38,413 nt of DNA from a virus, in the UHGV virus genome UHGV-0319989. The stretch is one strand, 5' to 3'. The notes under the pieces are model-generated. The model was not told the DNA's origin and did not search any database. It saw nothing but the letters and a program-made list of their open reading frames with translations. Positions 1-31,271 of the stretch are shown one piece after another; position 1 is the stretch's first letter, and every line of letters starts with the position of its first letter. The position numbers and the translations under genes were made by a program.

Positions 1-126
1 ATGTCTGCACCTGCACTGCCTGATGTCAGAACAGTATTTTGATGAATTGCCAAGGTTACAATGGCACAAATACGGCACAGGAGGAAACGTGGTGTATTTA
101 AATATGGGGTAACTCTTTGATTTTAA

Positions 127-172
127 TGGTGCCGATAATAGGAGTCGAACCTACGACCTTCGCATTACGAAT
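127..172 (-). tRNA. Partial tRNA-Thr (3' portion only, anticodon loop to CCA); thrW-like prophage attachment-site core
   Basis: Reverse complement reads ATTCGTAATGCGAAGGTCGTAGGTTCGACTCCTATTATCGGCACCA: anticodon loop with CGT, T-arm GGTTCGACTCC, CCA end. No acceptor or D arm follows, so this is a truncated copy, as left at the distal end of a tRNA-integrated prophage. Confidence 0.6.
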
Positions 173-612
173 TATAAGAATCTGCTTCTAATTCAAAGTA
201 TTATCCCATCAACACTGCGCTCACACGTCCCACCACATCAAAACATGTAAAGCCTTGCAAGCCATTGCGAGGCCTTATGTGTCTCAGTTTTGTCCCACCT
301 TGTATTACGACTTGCATAGCCAATGAAGATAAACGTGACGACAAACGGCGCAGCAGTCTTCTTTTCCTTCATACTTTCCCCACCCAGCATGCATACCTTT
401 ATGCCATAACTGAAGTTTATGTCTGTTATGAGCGAGGAACGGACATTACTAACAGCATTCTGTGTGAATCACCAGGGAGCAGGTCAGCGCCACTACTCTA
501 TATAATCGCTAACGATGACAAGTATAATTATATAAGTCTTTGCCCTTAGCTTTTGGATAAAATTGTTGAAGTTTCACGAAAATAATGATAAACAAAAAAA
601 GTAGCAATAATA

Positions 613-1557
613 ATGGATTTAATTATGGAATGGAGATTTTTAGGTTCTCTATCAGAGGCCAGGAAATCTGGCTGTAGCGGAGTTTATCTTATTGTCCATA
701 AAGGACTTTTCAGTCGTGTGGTTTACGTTGGGGTAAGTTGTAATGTAGGTAGAAGGATAACCGAACATTACGACGGTTATCTTAGAGGAAATCGAACAAT
801 TTACGACGCTGGTCACGACGAAGACGTTTATCGCTTCATGTCAGCTTATAAAATTCATAACCACACAAAATACTATCAAGCCTTGGCGAATGATTATAAG
901 ATATGGGCATCTACCACAATGTATTCTGATTTGCCGAAAAACATGCTAGCAAAAAGCCAAACCTTTGATACTGATTGGCAGAGCATTGCATTAGAAAAAT
1001 ATATTCCTCAACTGGTAGTATGGGCCCTTCCAATGGCAAAATACTGTTATTCAAATGCAAGCAGGATTGAAAGTGTAATCCAATCAAAGCTCATTAAATC
1101 TTTTGATTTGAGAGGTTTTTTTAATATAAAGCAATTAAGCATATTGGGTAAAATTGAATATCCCTATATGGAAAAGGTCAAAGTTTTCATTATTAACACA
1201 CCTGATTTAGACCCGGCATCCCAGCTTATTTTTAGCAATCTATATAACAAAAAAACTGATAACAACTTCTGTAAAGAGTTCCGTTCACAATTTAAAAGCG
1301 AGATTTTTCAGAGGGAAAGTGAAACTCAGAGAAAGCGAACTATTAGGGAGCATAAGGTATCTCTTTATGAAAATTATGGCAAGCCTTGGACTTTAAAGGA
1401 AATGGAAAAACTTAGAGTCATGCTTGTCGATTTTGATTTGTCCCCGACAGAAATATCTGAGTATCTAGGAAGAGAGCCGCGCTCTATATCTAAAAAAATA
1501 AGCGAAAATGATAAAGTTACTAATTATAAATGGCGAGAGAGCGTCGGCTGGTTGTGA
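613..1557 (+). CDS. Hypothetical protein with GIY-YIG-like N-terminal motif and C-terminal HTH-like motif (homing-endonuclease-like architecture)
   Basis: 314-aa ORF in strongly AT-rich DNA. N-terminus GVYLIVHKG...RVVYVGVSCNVGRRITEH resembles the GIY-(x10)-YIG...R...E/H nuclease motif; C-terminus KPWTLKEMEKLRVML...SPTEISEYLGREPRSISKKI resembles a WTxEE-type HTH. Start codon uncertain (613 or 625). Confidence 0.55.
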   Translation: MDLIMEWRFLGSLSEARKSGCSGVYLIVHKGLFSRVVYVGVSCNVGRRITEHYDGYLRGNRTIYDAGHDEDVYRFMSAYKIHNHTKYYQALANDYKIWASTTMYSDLPKNMLAKSQTFDTDWQSIALEKYIPQLVVWALPMAKYCYSNASRIESVIQSKLIKSFDLRGFFNIKQLSILGKIEYPYMEKVKVFIINTPDLDPASQLIFSNLYNKKTDNNFCKEFRSQFKSEIFQRESETQRKRTIREHKVSLYENYGKPWTLKEMEKLRVMLVDFDLSPTEISEYLGREPRSISKKISENDKVTNYKWRESVGWL

Positions 1558-1705
1558 CGTTACGTTTTGATTGAAATAACCCCCATTTTGCAAAGTCCGC
1601 TCTTGGCACATAGCAGACCAGAGACACTGGCGTAAAGCCATGGAGGATCGGTGGGAGGAGGTAAAAATCCTCTCATGCAAAAAATACGCAAAATCGATAA
1701 CAGTT

Positions 1706-2732: not shown

Positions 2733-3065
2733 GCCATCCCCTCCTTTTTTTATGGATTATACATCCTATAAACATGTTGTCACCGAAAGGGAAAAGCATA
2801 AACCCAATTTATGTTCCACAAGATGTTCAAAAATCAAACAACCATATAGCTGAGGAGCACAAAAGAGCAAAAGTTTACCAACCCCATATATCCATACAGC
2901 ACATACAATTGACACTACATATGGTATTTTTTAAGTTACGCCTTGCACCATTTCATGATTTTATGTAGATTGTCATCACACGCTGAGATTAAAAAATTCT
3001 ACAATTTTTGTTGATCTTGAGTTTGGTTTTTAGTATAAGTGAGCATGGATTGTAGGAGGCGCAAC

Positions 3066-3416
3066 ATGGTAACTAGCTTTGGTAAGACTCTCAGAAAAAT
3101 GAGAATAGACCGGGGTATGGTGCTCAAAAATATGGCTGATCTGTTAGGCGTTAGTTCGGCTTACTTATCCGCCATTGAATTAGGCAAAAGAGCTATACCG
3201 GACTCATTAGTAAATACGATTGCAACAACTTTTGAGCTTAGCGGACAAGACATCATCAATCTCAAGAAACAGGCAGAGATTTCTCAACCGTCCATTAAGG
3301 TTGATATGTCGGATGCAAATGAGCAGAACAAAGAACTAATGCTTGTTTTTGCTCGTAAATTTAAGGACCTGAGTCCAGAGCAACTCGATAAGCTTAATAA
3401 AATGTTAAAGGACTGA
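3066..3416 (+). CDS. XRE-family helix-turn-helix transcriptional regulator
   Basis: HTH MVLKNMADLLGVSSAYLSAIELGKRAIP. AGGAGG Shine-Dalgarno 6 nt upstream of the ATG at 3066 (the ORF-track start at 3039 lacks an RBS). Confidence 0.8.
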   Translation: MVTSFGKTLRKMRIDRGMVLKNMADLLGVSSAYLSAIELGKRAIPDSLVNTIATTFELSGQDIINLKKQAEISQPSIKVDMSDANEQNKELMLVFARKFKDLSPEQLDKLNKMLKD

Positions 3417-3419
3417 ATA

Positions 3420-3953
3420 ATGATTGCGAAACGAGAACTTGGCCATCGCGTTTCACCTCTCAGCACCAGCATGATTAAATCATACGCTCATCGTCTGAGA
3501 GACGTTCTTCAGATATCAAATCACACATATCTGAGACTGGATGTATTACTAGAAGGTCTTATGGCCTCAGAAAGCATTGAGCTAGAAATTGTTGAAGATC
3601 ATGAACTGCCCAAACGCTATGCAGTGACTTATCCAGATAAGAACAAAATTGTTTTACAGCGATCTGTTTACGATGCAGTGTGCAATGGTGAGAACCATGC
3701 GAGATTCACTGTTGCGCATGAACTTGGTCATTTAGTCATGCATCGCAATCAAAGTATCTATGCACGTAATAAGACTAGTGGAGGGCATAAAATCTATGAA
3801 GACAGCGAATGGCAAGCAGATGTTTTTGCAAGCCACTTCTTAATTGACTCAAGACTAGTTTTGCCCACAATGACTGTTGAAGATATAAGCAAAACATTTG
3901 GTGTCAGTCAACAAGCGGCTGAAACTTGGATGAGAAAAAATGCAAAAAGATAA
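3420..3953 (+). CDS. ImmA/IrrE-family (COG2856-like) zinc metallopeptidase
   Basis: HEXXH motif in FTVAHELGHLVMH with downstream E...SEWQADVFASHFL. ATG 3 nt after the XRE stop, so a coupled XRE-peptidase pair. Confidence 0.75.
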   Translation: MIAKRELGHRVSPLSTSMIKSYAHRLRDVLQISNHTYLRLDVLLEGLMASESIELEIVEDHELPKRYAVTYPDKNKIVLQRSVYDAVCNGENHARFTVAHELGHLVMHRNQSIYARNKTSGGHKIYEDSEWQADVFASHFLIDSRLVLPTMTVEDISKTFGVSQQAAETWMRKNAKR

Positions 3954-4547: not shown

Positions 4548-5417
<870 letters not shown>

Positions 5418-27239: not shown

Positions 27240-28292
27240 TTATTTCCCCACCAGTTCACTTACCTCTTTCACCGTCTGATTAAACCGCTCTGACTCAAGT
27301 TCAACACCTAACGCCCGACGCCCCAGCGCCATTGCTGCTTTTATTGTGGAACCGGATCCCATAAAGAAATCAGCAACCAGATCACCAGGTCGACTACTGG
27401 CATTGATTATTTGCCGGAGCATATCCGCCGGTTTCTCGCACGGATGTTTACCCGGGTAGAACTGAACGGGCTTATGCGTCCAGACATCGGTATAAGGCAC
27501 GGAGACTGATACGGAGAAATAGCGCCGGAGAGATTTAAACTCATCCAGCAATTCAGAATATTTGCGATTCAGTGAATCATAAGATGCCACCAGCTGGTGG
27601 TGTGGTTGTTCCAGTTGTTGTTCCTGAAACTTCTCTGCCGCTATACGGGAAAACAGTGCCTGTAACTTCCGATAGTCAGCCTCATTCGGCAACTGCCACT
27701 GACTGGCACCAAACCAGTGGGAAACCATATTTTTCTTACCTGTGGCTTCGGCAATTTGTTTTGCCGTTATACCCAGTTCGGCACGAGCATCCCTGAAATA
27801 CGATATCAGCGGTGCCATTATGTGCTGTTTGAGTTCCCTTTCTTTTGCCGCATAGCCGTCACTTTTGCCGCGATATGGCCCCTGGTAATGTTCAGCAAAC
27901 AGAACGCGCTCTGTGGCAGGAAAATATGCGCGCAGACTTTCTTTATTACACCCATTCCAACGTCCGGACGGCTTCGCCCAGATGATATGGTTAAGCACGT
28001 TGAAACGTTCACGCATCATGATCTCAATATCAGATGCCAGGCGATGCCCACAGAACAGGTAAAGGCTTCCGGCAGGTTTCAACACCCGCCAGAACTGGGC
28101 CAGACAGTGGTCCAGCCACTTAAGGTAATCTTCGTCCCCTTTCCACTGATTGTCCCAACCGTTGGGTTTCACCTTGAAGTAAGGCGGATCGGTAACAATC
28201 AGGTCAATGGAATCATCAGGCAGGGACTGAATAAAATGCAGGCAATCAGCGTTGATTAAATCAACACTGTTTATTTTTACAGTATTTTTCAT
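27240..28292 (-). CDS. Orphan DNA methyltransferase (N6-adenine / N4-cytosine class, DPPY motif)
   Basis: LIVTDPPY near the N-terminus, C-terminal AdoMet-binding FxGSGS; no adjacent restriction endonuclease gene seen. Confidence 0.8.
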   Translation of the reverse strand: MKNTVKINSVDLINADCLHFIQSLPDDSIDLIVTDPPYFKVKPNGWDNQWKGDEDYLKWLDHCLAQFWRVLKPAGSLYLFCGHRLASDIEIMMRERFNVLNHIIWAKPSGRWNGCNKESLRAYFPATERVLFAEHYQGPYRGKSDGYAAKERELKQHIMAPLISYFRDARAELGITAKQIAEATGKKNMVSHWFGASQWQLPNEADYRKLQALFSRIAAEKFQEQQLEQPHHQLVASYDSLNRKYSELLDEFKSLRRYFSVSVSVPYTDVWTHKPVQFYPGKHPCEKPADMLRQIINASSRPGDLVADFFMGSGSTIKAAMALGRRALGVELESERFNQTVKEVSELVGK

Positions 28293-28783: not shown

Positions 28784-28899
28784 AAGCTGTGTGGCGAAGT
28801 AACCACTCTTAACAGATTATGATAGTTTTTGCGTACGCGTTAGTAATTTATTATGCTCTTTACAATTGTTAGCTTAACCGCATGGAATTGACCAAAAAA

Positions 28900-30048
28900 A
28901 TGAGCAAAGCAAGCATACGCCACGTAATCGTTCATGAGCTCTTAAAAGAATCTAATAAAGACTTCGATCACTCCAAACCATACAATCTTCGTGATACAGA
29001 ACTAGATAAAACAAATGATATAGTAAAAAAATTAGTAGACGGTGTTATTGATTTGTATGGTTCAAAAGGGAACTCAGCGCATTATGGTGTTTTTATTAAA
29101 AATAAAACAAAGCAAGGCCCTATACCAGAACTATTTTATAAATACTCTTTAGTTCAACAATCTGTTTCAAGTGATTTCATTGAATTATCGAAGGAAGTTA
29201 TGAAACAAATGTATAAATCTGCTCAAGAGCAGATTTGGGCTTCTGGAGGATATGTTGTTTTTACTGATTATATTTTATCTGGTTTCCGTTATCTATTGGT
29301 TACAATGATCAAAAAAACTAATGGCGTAACTATTAGTGAAAATTTAGAGCCAGAGGAAATGATTCACTTAGAACTTGGTAATATTAACCAAGCAGCAAAA
29401 ATAAATTTCAGATATTATGAAGAATACCAAAAAGCAGATGACTTAAAAAAAACAGACTTAAGTTATCTAAGCTTTATAAGCAAAACTACGGGACAGTCAG
29501 CGGCAGCATATTTTATAGCAGCATTAGGATGTGACAAGGGGATTGCTTCAGCAGGTGCAACCCGTAAGTTACCAGATGAAATAAGGCGTTTCTTTAAGAA
29601 AGAACCTCTTTTAAAAAATCAAGCAGAGTCATTTAGAAATGATGTTATCAAATACTTAGAAAAGCAATTTGACAACGAGCACTCTGCAAGGCTTTCTGAT
29701 ATCGAATCGCTTGCTTCAGGCCATATGTCCGATTTAAAAGAGGAAGAAAAAACAGAACTTGTTGATAAATTAATGAAACACCTCAATAGTGAGGAAGTCA
29801 GAATCCCATCAGAGTTCGTAATCAATAAAAACTCCTTAGATAAAATCCGCAATGTGATATATAAAACCCCATCATTGAGCTTTCACTTCGACAAGGATTT
29901 ACTCGGTGTCACAACTGATGCTAAAATATATTATGATGACGAAAACCAAAGCCTAACATTTAATAATTTGCCTGTTGAAGCATTAACTAAGATAAGAAGA
30001 GCGTTGAAAGAAACTGATAACCCGAGTAATGAAGAAGATAAAGAATGA
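28900..30048 (+). CDS. NdpA/YejK-like nucleoid-associated-protein-family homologue (candidate sensor of a cargo two-gene module)
   Basis: Collinear similarity by eye to E. coli YejK: N-terminus IRHVIVHELLKE versus YejK INQIALHQLIKR, and core GGYVVFTDYILSGFRYLLVTMIKKTNGVTISENLE. AT-rich, plus strand inside a minus-strand operon. An in-frame ATG at 28882 is an alternative start. Confidence 0.6.
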   Translation: MSKASIRHVIVHELLKESNKDFDHSKPYNLRDTELDKTNDIVKKLVDGVIDLYGSKGNSAHYGVFIKNKTKQGPIPELFYKYSLVQQSVSSDFIELSKEVMKQMYKSAQEQIWASGGYVVFTDYILSGFRYLLVTMIKKTNGVTISENLEPEEMIHLELGNINQAAKINFRYYEEYQKADDLKKTDLSYLSFISKTTGQSAAAYFIAALGCDKGIASAGATRKLPDEIRRFFKKEPLLKNQAESFRNDVIKYLEKQFDNEHSARLSDIESLASGHMSDLKEEEKTELVDKLMKHLNSEEVRIPSEFVINKNSLDKIRNVIYKTPSLSFHFDKDLLGVTTDAKIYYDDENQSLTFNNLPVEALTKIRRALKETDNPSNEEDKE

Positions 30049-31271
30049 ATGATTTTAGTATAATAGTTAATCTGTATAGATTATCAAGCTATCCTCATTT
30101 TGACGGGGCTAAGTTTTCTGCGCGTATAGCTTATAAGGCAGACGTAAAATCATTGTTCAAAAGAATTTTGAACCCTACTTTTCAAGCTGGTACAGCTGAC
30201 GAAATAGAGGTGGATGGTCATTTAATTTATGATTATGAAGACTTTCCTGAAAAGGGAAATTTTCTTACATACTCGTTTAAAATTTCACAAGGAAGTGCGA
30301 ATCGTTTTTATAAAAATAAAAACGAGTTTGTAAAAATAAACACGCTCAAGAAAGGCATAATGCCAGAGTATTTCTATATTATAGAGGATGATTTCTATTC
30401 ATTAGAAACACCAAAACCTTCTTATATCCAAAAAATTGAGGACATTTGTGAGCTAATCAATGCTCTTTCCATGCTTGCTCATTTCCATGATATAAAAAAA
30501 GATAGCAAAGGTACATTTTATCGTTTAGTCTTTATTTTAAACTCAGAGTCTAAATCTTCTTCTGCTGTAATTGAAACAAATATTACAGAAGAAATTTTTA
30601 ATGATAAAACAGTAAATACTCAGTTAGTTAAAACATTAGTAAGTAGTGAAGCTACTACTGATGCCCATCACATTGAAAAGATTAACACTTTCAGAAACAC
30701 AGTTATTGAGTATGTTAATAAAAATGGAAATTCCTTTGTCGAGTTAATTAACAAGTGGGATTTCATATGCGAACTTTATACGAACAACTTAGCTGCTTAT
30801 ATGTCGGCATTTTCTTTTCATAAAGCAAGGAAAGAAGTTGTTGATGCTGAACTCGATTACTCAGAAAAACTGTCAAAAATAATTTCAGAAATTTCTAACA
30901 AAGCTCTTGCAATACCTATTTCACTAGCTGGTTCAATTGCTATTTTCAAATTAACAACAAAAACTGATTGGATTATTGCTTTAATTGGATTGATTATCAC
31001 AGCAATAATAACATCTGCAATGATTGTGTCACAAAAAAAACAACTCGCTCGTATTTCACACTCTAAAGAAATACTTTTTGGACAATTAAGATATAGAATA
31101 AAGGATGACACCAGCGATCTTAAAGAGAGCTTAGAAGAGGCTATTAAAAAATTAAATGACAATGAGGATTTTTGTCATAAGGTGCTTGACAGTTTATTAT
31201 CACTAGCATGGATGCCTACATTCATAGGCATCATCGGTATTTTATTTAAATTAATGCCAAATATTACTTGA
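30045..31271 (+). CDS. Hypothetical protein with three C-terminal transmembrane helices (candidate membrane effector)
   Basis: 408 aa; ATGA start/stop overlap with the upstream gene; predicted TM segments ALAIPISLAGSIAIFKL, WIIALIGLIITAIITSAMIV, TFIGIIGILFKLM; no recognisable catalytic motif. AT-rich. Confidence 0.6.
   Translation: MNDFSIIVNLYRLSSYPHFDGAKFSARIAYKADVKSLFKRILNPTFQAGTADEIEVDGHLIYDYEDFPEKGNFLTYSFKISQGSANRFYKNKNEFVKINTLKKGIMPEYFYIIEDDFYSLETPKPSYIQKIEDICELINALSMLAHFHDIKKDSKGTFYRLVFILNSESKSSSAVIETNITEEIFNDKTVNTQLVKTLVSSEATTDAHHIEKINTFRNTVIEYVNKNGNSFVELINKWDFICELYTNNLAAYMSAFSFHKARKEVVDAELDYSEKLSKIISEISNKALAIPISLAGSIAIFKLTTKTDWIIALIGLIITAIITSAMIVSQKKQLARISHSKEILFGQLRYRIKDDTSDLKESLEEAIKKLNDNEDFCHKVLDSLLSLAWMPTFIGIIGILFKLMPNIT

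Follow-up and report, generated by a model that had tools for sequence, protein, structure and literature searches.

Single-gene defence systems that consist of a GIY-YIG nuclease are on record under the names PD-T4-3, PD-Lambda-1 and Uzume (10.1101/2024.10.26.620412), and all three are solitary nuclease genes found on prophages and islands. Homing endonucleases of the I-TevI, I-BmoI and Seg type combine an N-terminal GIY-YIG domain, with the residue pattern Y..Y-x-G..R..H..E..N, with a linker and a C-terminal domain that contains a helix-turn-helix (HTH). Odn, the chimeric origin-directed nuclease of phage ICP1, joins a nuclease of the GIY-YIG/T5orf172 kind to a sequence-specific DNA-binding domain and serves as a weapon between elements (PMC8263062). 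The Ssn single-stranded DNA nucleases (cd10448), also members of the GIY-YIG superfamily, are encoded by genes that have hairpin-forming repeats on both sides (PMC11893778). Here, we describe a gene that shares features with each of these groups: the open reading frame (ORF) at positions 613..1557, on the plus strand, of the virus genome UHGV-0319989. The whole stretch analysed, 38,413 nucleotides in length, is referred to as the window, and the gene as the cargo gene. On the basis of sequence comparisons, we give about an even chance to the reading that it is an uncharacterised single-gene nuclease directed against phages or other mobile elements.

The protein belongs to the GIY-YIG superfamily, within which it forms a new, uncharacterised branch that carries a Myb/GcrA-type DNA-binding domain. 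In the AlphaFold2 (AF2) model of the 314-amino acid (aa) product, which has a predicted local distance difference test (pLDDT) score of 92.9, the GIY-YIG alpha/beta fold is present. The invariant residues, the family profile and the model together delimit an extended nuclease domain at residues ~6-185 (628..1167, plus strand). In the predicted secondary structure this is followed by a linker at residues ~186-255 (1168..1377, plus strand), which includes a long helix at 228-251. The C-terminal part (1378..1554, plus strand) holds a three-helix HTH of the Myb/SANT/GcrA type at residues ~256-303 and a conserved tail, NDKxSNxKWRESxxWL. Residues Y25, Y38-V39-G40, R48, H52, E153 and N171 are invariant in an alignment of 41 homologs. 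With hhalign, I-TevI residues 3-41 align to the motif region of the product, so that GVY, YVG, R48 and H52 fall on the GIY, YVG, R27 and H31 of I-TevI, the sequence of which was checked against PDB 1MK0 and 1LN0. E153 and N171 are likely the equivalents of I-TevI E75 and N90, a correspondence taken from spacing and superposition of the modelled structure and not from sequence alignment.

An earlier note on this DNA, made from the letters alone and here called the sequence-only reading, had recognised a GIY-YIG-like N-terminus and an HTH-like C-terminus. The second of these is the Myb/SANT/GcrA-type domain just described, and the first is borne out by the motifs, the fold and the invariant putative catalytic residues, although the query by itself scores 15.8 bits against Pfam GIY-YIG (PF01541), below the gathering cutoff of 22.6, and covers only the first half of the model. 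The weak scores are due to a conserved insertion of ~90 residues between helix 1 and the Glu helix of the domain, which precedes E153 and N171. At E<=0.1, PF01541 matches all 41 aligned family members (best E-value 7e-6), and three distant relatives, P0074, P0089 and P0076, exceed the cutoff with 32.1, 26.9 and 23.0 bits. The first ~205 residues form a module that stands alone in many proteins of ~210-230 aa, as seen in a HMMER search of 1.84 billion cluster representatives; a profile search for such short relatives in a word-indexed database returned 4 proteins only. Because these shorter proteins hold only the first ~205 residues, the enlarged nuclease domain is an autonomous module and the HTH an add-on.

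The closest kin of the C-terminal HTH are the DNA-binding domain of GcrA (PDB 5yiu) and Myb/SANT domains. Seven family members match Myb_DNA-bind_6, and repeated GcrA/Myb-type HTH domains are found in proteins whose match to the family profile is limited to its C-terminal part. The product itself does not match the Pfam GcrA model, and the sigma-70 interacting domain of GcrA is absent from it. Methylation-dependent DNA binding has been reported for GcrA, and the same for the HTH described here would be speculation. A search of PDB sequences with the single sequence gave no match, and Foldseek with the AF2 model found nothing in the PDB at E<=0.001. The PDB matches of the family profile were to antibody VH-framework sequences at E>0.1 and were rejected as spurious. 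A literature search on the protein accessions found no paper that mentions them.

By its substitution pattern, the cargo gene is a genuine coding gene under strong purifying selection: dN/dS, the ratio of nonsynonymous to synonymous substitution rates, is 0.07-0.17 in pairwise comparisons with homologs whose synonymous sites are unsaturated. Because homologs occur across many genera and dN/dS is low, this is not a chance ORF. The 314-aa frame is thus present as the sequence-only reading described it, and the non-coding status that the reading had named as an objection is contradicted by the conserved homologs. The frame opens with an ATG at 613. A second in-frame ATG at 625 (M5) coincides with the first residue of many 310-aa homologs, this residue is nearly invariant, and 625 may be the true start. 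The 5' region of the module (445..612, plus strand) contains a probable promoter, as judged from the upstream alignment of homologs, in which a -10 hexamer, TATAAT at 501-506, is kept as TAnAAT in Serratia, Salmonella and Brenneria. A consensus promoter scan upstream of the gene returned nothing convincing.

The composition of the gene is foreign to the phage core. Its GC content is 36.3% and its GC content at third codon positions (GC3) is 34%, compared to 52-58% and 54-67%, respectively, in the phage structural genes. It had been called the most AT-rich gene in the window, which is incorrect: GC is lower in the genes at 28882..30048 (33.4%) and 30045..31271 (30.7%). The recent acquisition that had been proposed for it is supported, since an unrelated E. 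coli island carries the same 1198-bp module (window 421-1618) at 99.2% identity.

Homologs of the full-length protein are limited in number and patchily distributed. A search of 5.8 billion proteins yielded 72 homologs of ~310 aa that are 40-100% identical along their whole length and belong to Enterobacterales, Aeromonas, Vibrio, Photobacterium, Pseudoalteromonas, Thalassotalea and Undibacterium, and the exhaustive HMMER search of cluster representatives yielded only 135 proteins at E<=0.001. The segment 400-1800 of the window, which includes the gene, is mostly present in 279 of 5426 complete E. coli genomes. Proteins more than 90% identical occur in Salmonella and Erwinia amylovora, and the 1198-bp module is also found on plasmids of the IncF type and others.

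The gene sits in a prophage slot with variable cargo. The window covers the end of a temperate phage that has tRNA-Thr as its integration site; it contains a Mu-like baseplate/tail module, a Pin invertase and a CI-like repressor. Positions 120..172 (minus strand) are 100% identical by BLAST to the 3' part of annotated E. coli tRNA-Thr genes and represent the remnant of the attachment (att) site at the prophage end. This remnant lies ~440 nt upstream of the cargo gene, in agreement with the earlier statement that the gene adjoins an att site. ARAGORN finds no complete tRNA in the window, and Rfam reports no RNA family there at gathering score, leaving the tRNA-Thr fragment unrecognised. In E. 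coli 50EVAW, a P4-like satellite with an integrase, a TOPRIM/DUF927 primase and an Icd-like protein (locus L001, 128-7563) is inserted at a partial tRNA-Thr directly upstream of the gene; because a satellite has integrated there, the att remnant is evidently still in use.

Sister E. coli prophages share the backbone on both sides of the slot (window ~5/125-440 and 1595 onward) and carry other cargo between: a retron Ec48 reverse transcriptase with its effector, an S1 peptidase, an AAA ATPase, or a type II restriction-modification system with or without AbiTii. Within 1.5-3 kb of the cargo gene in the window itself are two further loci of this kind. At 4593..5417 (plus strand; the start in relatives corresponds to 4644) is a second GIY-YIG gene, which matches PD-T4-3 end to end in PADLOC (E 2.7e-140) and Pfam LEM-3_GIY-YIG (2.4e-14). 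Just upstream of it is a CapH/CapP-like pair, encoding an HTH protein (3039..3416, plus strand; PADLOC capH 6e-11) and an ImmA/IrrE metalloprotease (3420..3953, plus strand; capP 5e-15), which may control PD-T4-3. PD-T4-3 is reportedly one of the systems that Vassallo et al. 2022 obtained in their E. coli functional selection. With these neighbours, the first 5.5 kb of the window constitute a defence and accessory island, and the slot is a recognised type of prophage defence hotspot.

Outside this phage, the gene is always solitary, with no conserved partner gene in 13 contexts. In the other E. coli island, the 1198-bp module adjoins a type I restriction-modification system with an embedded DarTG. 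The Aeromonas homolog is beside AbiH, downstream of guaA, and the Thalassotalea homolog directly follows BrxR and an MksE-containing, Wadjet-like operon. In Undibacterium the homolog is among RES, HEPN and HNH genes. The Brenneria homolog is carried by an integrative conjugative element together with ArdC and TerB/BrxC-D-like genes, and that of Salmonella is two genes from the integrase of an integrative island with Thoeris and a TIR protein. A nuclease-only short relative is located between hsdR and a SIR2-HerA pair. The Vibrio parahaemolyticus homolog is a bona fide integron cassette with attC-like flanks, and those of Kosakonia and Serratia are inserted singly among housekeeping genes, without an integrase or insertion sequence (IS). 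An adjacent methyltransferase, the partner of type II GIY-YIG enzymes of the Eco29kI type, was absent from every context examined.

We infer that the product of the cargo gene is a nuclease, that it binds DNA and that it acts in defence, the last because its surroundings in several genomes point to defence islands. A GIY-YIG catalytic domain joined through a helical linker to a Myb/SANT/GcrA-type HTH would make a stand-alone DNA endonuclease, in which the HTH presumably anchors the enzyme on double-stranded DNA and the nuclease cuts nearby in the fashion of I-TevI. The gene is accessory cargo of a temperate phage, lodged in the variable defence slot at the end distal to tRNA-Thr, and the solitary nuclease would most likely act on superinfecting phages or other invading mobile DNA. 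Self could be told from non-self by sequence specificity, or by DNA modification recognised via the HTH. Odn offers a parallel in concept, with no sequence relationship; it differs in being phage-encoded and in targeting the origin of a satellite (PMC8263062). Among the solitary defence nucleases, PD-T4-3, PD-Lambda-1 and Uzume have models that the product does not match, and PD-T4-3 is a LEM-3-like GIY-YIG protein of different architecture. The product likewise fits none of the 5027 models of PADLOC-DB v2.0.0 (2023).

Several considerations weigh against a role in defence. The assignment is one of guilt by association: known defence genes are located within 10 kb of the gene in about 7 of 13 independent contexts, a qualitative count that comes without a background rate, and three contexts (Kosakonia, Serratia and Vibrio) are plain housekeeping or integron settings. 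The sole PADLOC match, to PDC-S14, is weak and at the level of the motif (E 0.0075, residues 12-53). The domain architecture is equally that of a homing endonuclease. Finally, a constitutive nuclease without a partner immunity gene needs a rule to distinguish self from non-self, and none can be named.

If the cargo gene does serve in defence, a nuclease system of one uncharacterised gene is already widespread, in ~5% of complete E. coli genomes as well as in Salmonella, Erwinia amylovora, integrons of Vibrio and plasmids, and is missed by current models for defence annotation. A nuclease tethered to a Myb/GcrA-type reader would then offer a compact system in which to study how self and foreign DNA are distinguished by a solitary nuclease. 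It might also yield a new endonuclease directed by a site or a modification.

The main rival to the defence reading is that the gene is a free-standing, selfish homing endonuclease, which would cut cognate sites in genomes or elements lacking the gene and spread by recombinational repair, with any exclusion of related phages as a side effect. We consider this unlikely. A freestanding homing endonuclease was what the sequence-only reading had proposed, and what stands of that proposal is the domain architecture, a GIY-YIG domain, linker and C-terminal HTH as in I-TevI and Seg, together with the recently mobile, foreign character of cargo beside an att site. Homing would also suit a module that is 99% identical in unrelated contexts, the solo insertions in Kosakonia and Serratia, and the fusion of an HTH-domain relative (P0148) to a LAGLIDADG domain. 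A weak match to TIGR01453 (group I intron endonuclease) points the same way, but it scores 17.3 against a cutoff of 56.05 and is confined to the motif region. Related genes at variable positions in other phages, which the sequence-only reading had envisaged, did not appear: tblastn against 50,697 phage genomes found no homolog, and Foldseek against viral structures (BFVD) found nothing at E<=0.001. The NUMOD module that it had also envisaged has no Pfam match in the product, nor has a zinc finger. Compared to I-TevI and Seg proteins, the product has the ~90-residue insertion inside its catalytic domain and a Myb/SANT/GcrA-type DNA-binding domain in place of a zinc finger, NUMOD and HTH; the gene is located in chromosomal slots of the defence type, on an integrative conjugative element and plasmids and in an integron, and not in the phage genomes searched. 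The Vibrio copy travels as an ordinary integron cassette. In addition, because sister prophages hold unrelated cargo between the same flanking palindromes in the same slot, exchange at the slot is independent of this nuclease. The homing and defence readings are compatible with each other, as phage homing endonucleases keep out competitors too.

A second alternative, to which we assign a small probability, is that the gene is accessory to the prophage or island and has a function other than defence, for example as a nuclease for repair or recombination or as a DNA-binding regulator with a secondary nuclease domain. The GcrA-type HTH is a transcription-factor domain, and some contexts are housekeeping ones, as this alternative would have it. 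The invariance of every putative catalytic residue within the family argues against a purely regulatory role; as to a role in repair, no link to repair operons was seen in any context examined. A patchy, horizontally transferred distribution, low GC and residence in an accessory slot also fit such a function poorly.

The flanks of the gene bear on how it moves. The cargo gene is central in an imperfect inverted repeat, the left arm of which (~77 nt, 371..447) holds a 24-nt L-type palindrome, GTCTGTTATGAGCGAGGAACGGAC, at 421-444, and the right arm of which (1592..1664) holds a 24-nt R-type palindrome, GTCCGCTCTTGGCACATAGCAGAC, at 1595-1618. The local alignment score of the arms is 22, compared to 8.1+-1.5 in shuffled sequences, and was reached by 0 of 1000 shuffles. 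The consensus sequences, GTCYGYTWT-GAGCGA-RRARCGRAC for the L-type and GTCCGCTYT-TGGCAC-AKAGCRGAC for the R-type, have the same arms and different centres. Homology with the E. coli island copy stops exactly at the two palindromes, and the same palindromes bracket the S1-peptidase and retron cargos of sister prophages. They also bracket the gene in Serratia, Salmonella and Brenneria; in Serratia and Brenneria the R-type palindrome follows the homologous gene.

Both types extend well beyond this gene. A scan that took one genome per species (loci L028-L147) found at least 120 L-type sites across many genera of Enterobacterales and in Idiomarina and Alteromonas, and among the matches listed the centres are almost exclusively GAGCGA or TGGCAC. 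The two types are often adjacent, in the order R-type, a spacer of ~15 nt and L-type, and several 8-kb loci contain arrays of sites 0.5-4 kb apart. In two Erwinia-like loci, the genes between palindromes are ordinary (AraC, LysE, LysR, phytase-like, colicin), which rules out that the flanks are cassette sites specific to defence. A median of one place per genome excludes high-copy E. coli repeats of the ERIC kind. The SRM motif of Ssn was also considered and rejected, as a search with its regular expression gave no match in the window or at 10 homolog loci. Nor is the right palindrome a terminator or stable hairpin, as it is not followed by a T-run and folds no better than shuffled sequences (z 0.75). 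The palindromes match no Rfam family, and a literature search on their sequences found no paper containing them.

We read the palindromes as an intergenic repeat family of the REP-like kind. The unit in which genes appear to travel is L-gene-R, with the palindromes probably serving as short recombination handles for cargo swapping, and the slot illustrates how defence cargo is exchanged at prophage ends between the same short palindromic flanks. A bolder version of the defence reading would make the cargo gene a founder of a new single-gene immune nuclease family, in which the GcrA/Myb-type HTH reads foreign DNA, through its sequence or a base modification, and directs the insertion-bearing GIY-YIG domain to cut it; separately, it would make the L- and R-type palindromes portable recombination handles by which L-gene-R units of defence cargo are exchanged among prophages, islands and plasmids. 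We regard this version as a long shot.

In the last and least probable alternative, the nuclease acts on the palindromes that flank its own gene, which would be its substrates, as for Ssn with its NTS/SRM hairpins or REP-associated tyrosine transposases (RAYTs) with REPs. The bracketing of the gene in four genera, conserved arms with only two centre types, the abundance of the palindromes in Erwinia and Pantoea, which also have close homologs of the gene, and the Ssn precedent of a GIY-YIG gene between cognate hairpins (PMC11893778) would be consistent with this, but we consider it improbable, as no homolog of the gene is present at at least 120 palindrome loci (at least 129 L-type copies) among the matches listed, the same palindromes surround the S1 peptidase, retron Ec48 and ordinary metabolic or regulatory genes, none of the loci checked contains SRM, Ssn proteins have a single domain and are small compared to the two-domain, 314-aa product, and the Aeromonas, Thalassotalea, Vibrio and Undibacterium homologs lack such flanks.

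A different kind of flank was seen in Salmonella enterica, where the island homolog is enclosed by 34-nt terminal inverted repeats (locus L015, 9690-9723 and 11010-11043) that are 91% complementary. This 1354-bp unit has no transposase and resembles a mobile insertion cassette, with no target-site duplication evident.

Three other features of the window were recorded. The segment 1679-1805 (plus strand), within the prophage end integrated at tRNA-Thr, resembles the 3' end of ssrA (tmRNA), with a match to Rfam tmRNA positions 347-363 at 1779-1795 (E 7e-4). Lambdoid and Stx phages have end or att regions 86-91% identical to this segment, which probably represents what is left of an earlier att site of the ssrA type. 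The most AT-rich island of the window, 28882..31271 (plus strand; GC 33% and 31%), is on the strand opposite to the flanking phage genes and encodes a protein like the nucleoid-associated NA37 (PF04245, 4.4e-50) and a 408-aa ORF that matches nothing in Pfam or PADLOC; the two could be another accessory or defence pair. The region 27240..28292 (minus strand) encodes a phage N6/N4 DNA methyltransferase (PF01555, 1.3e-42).
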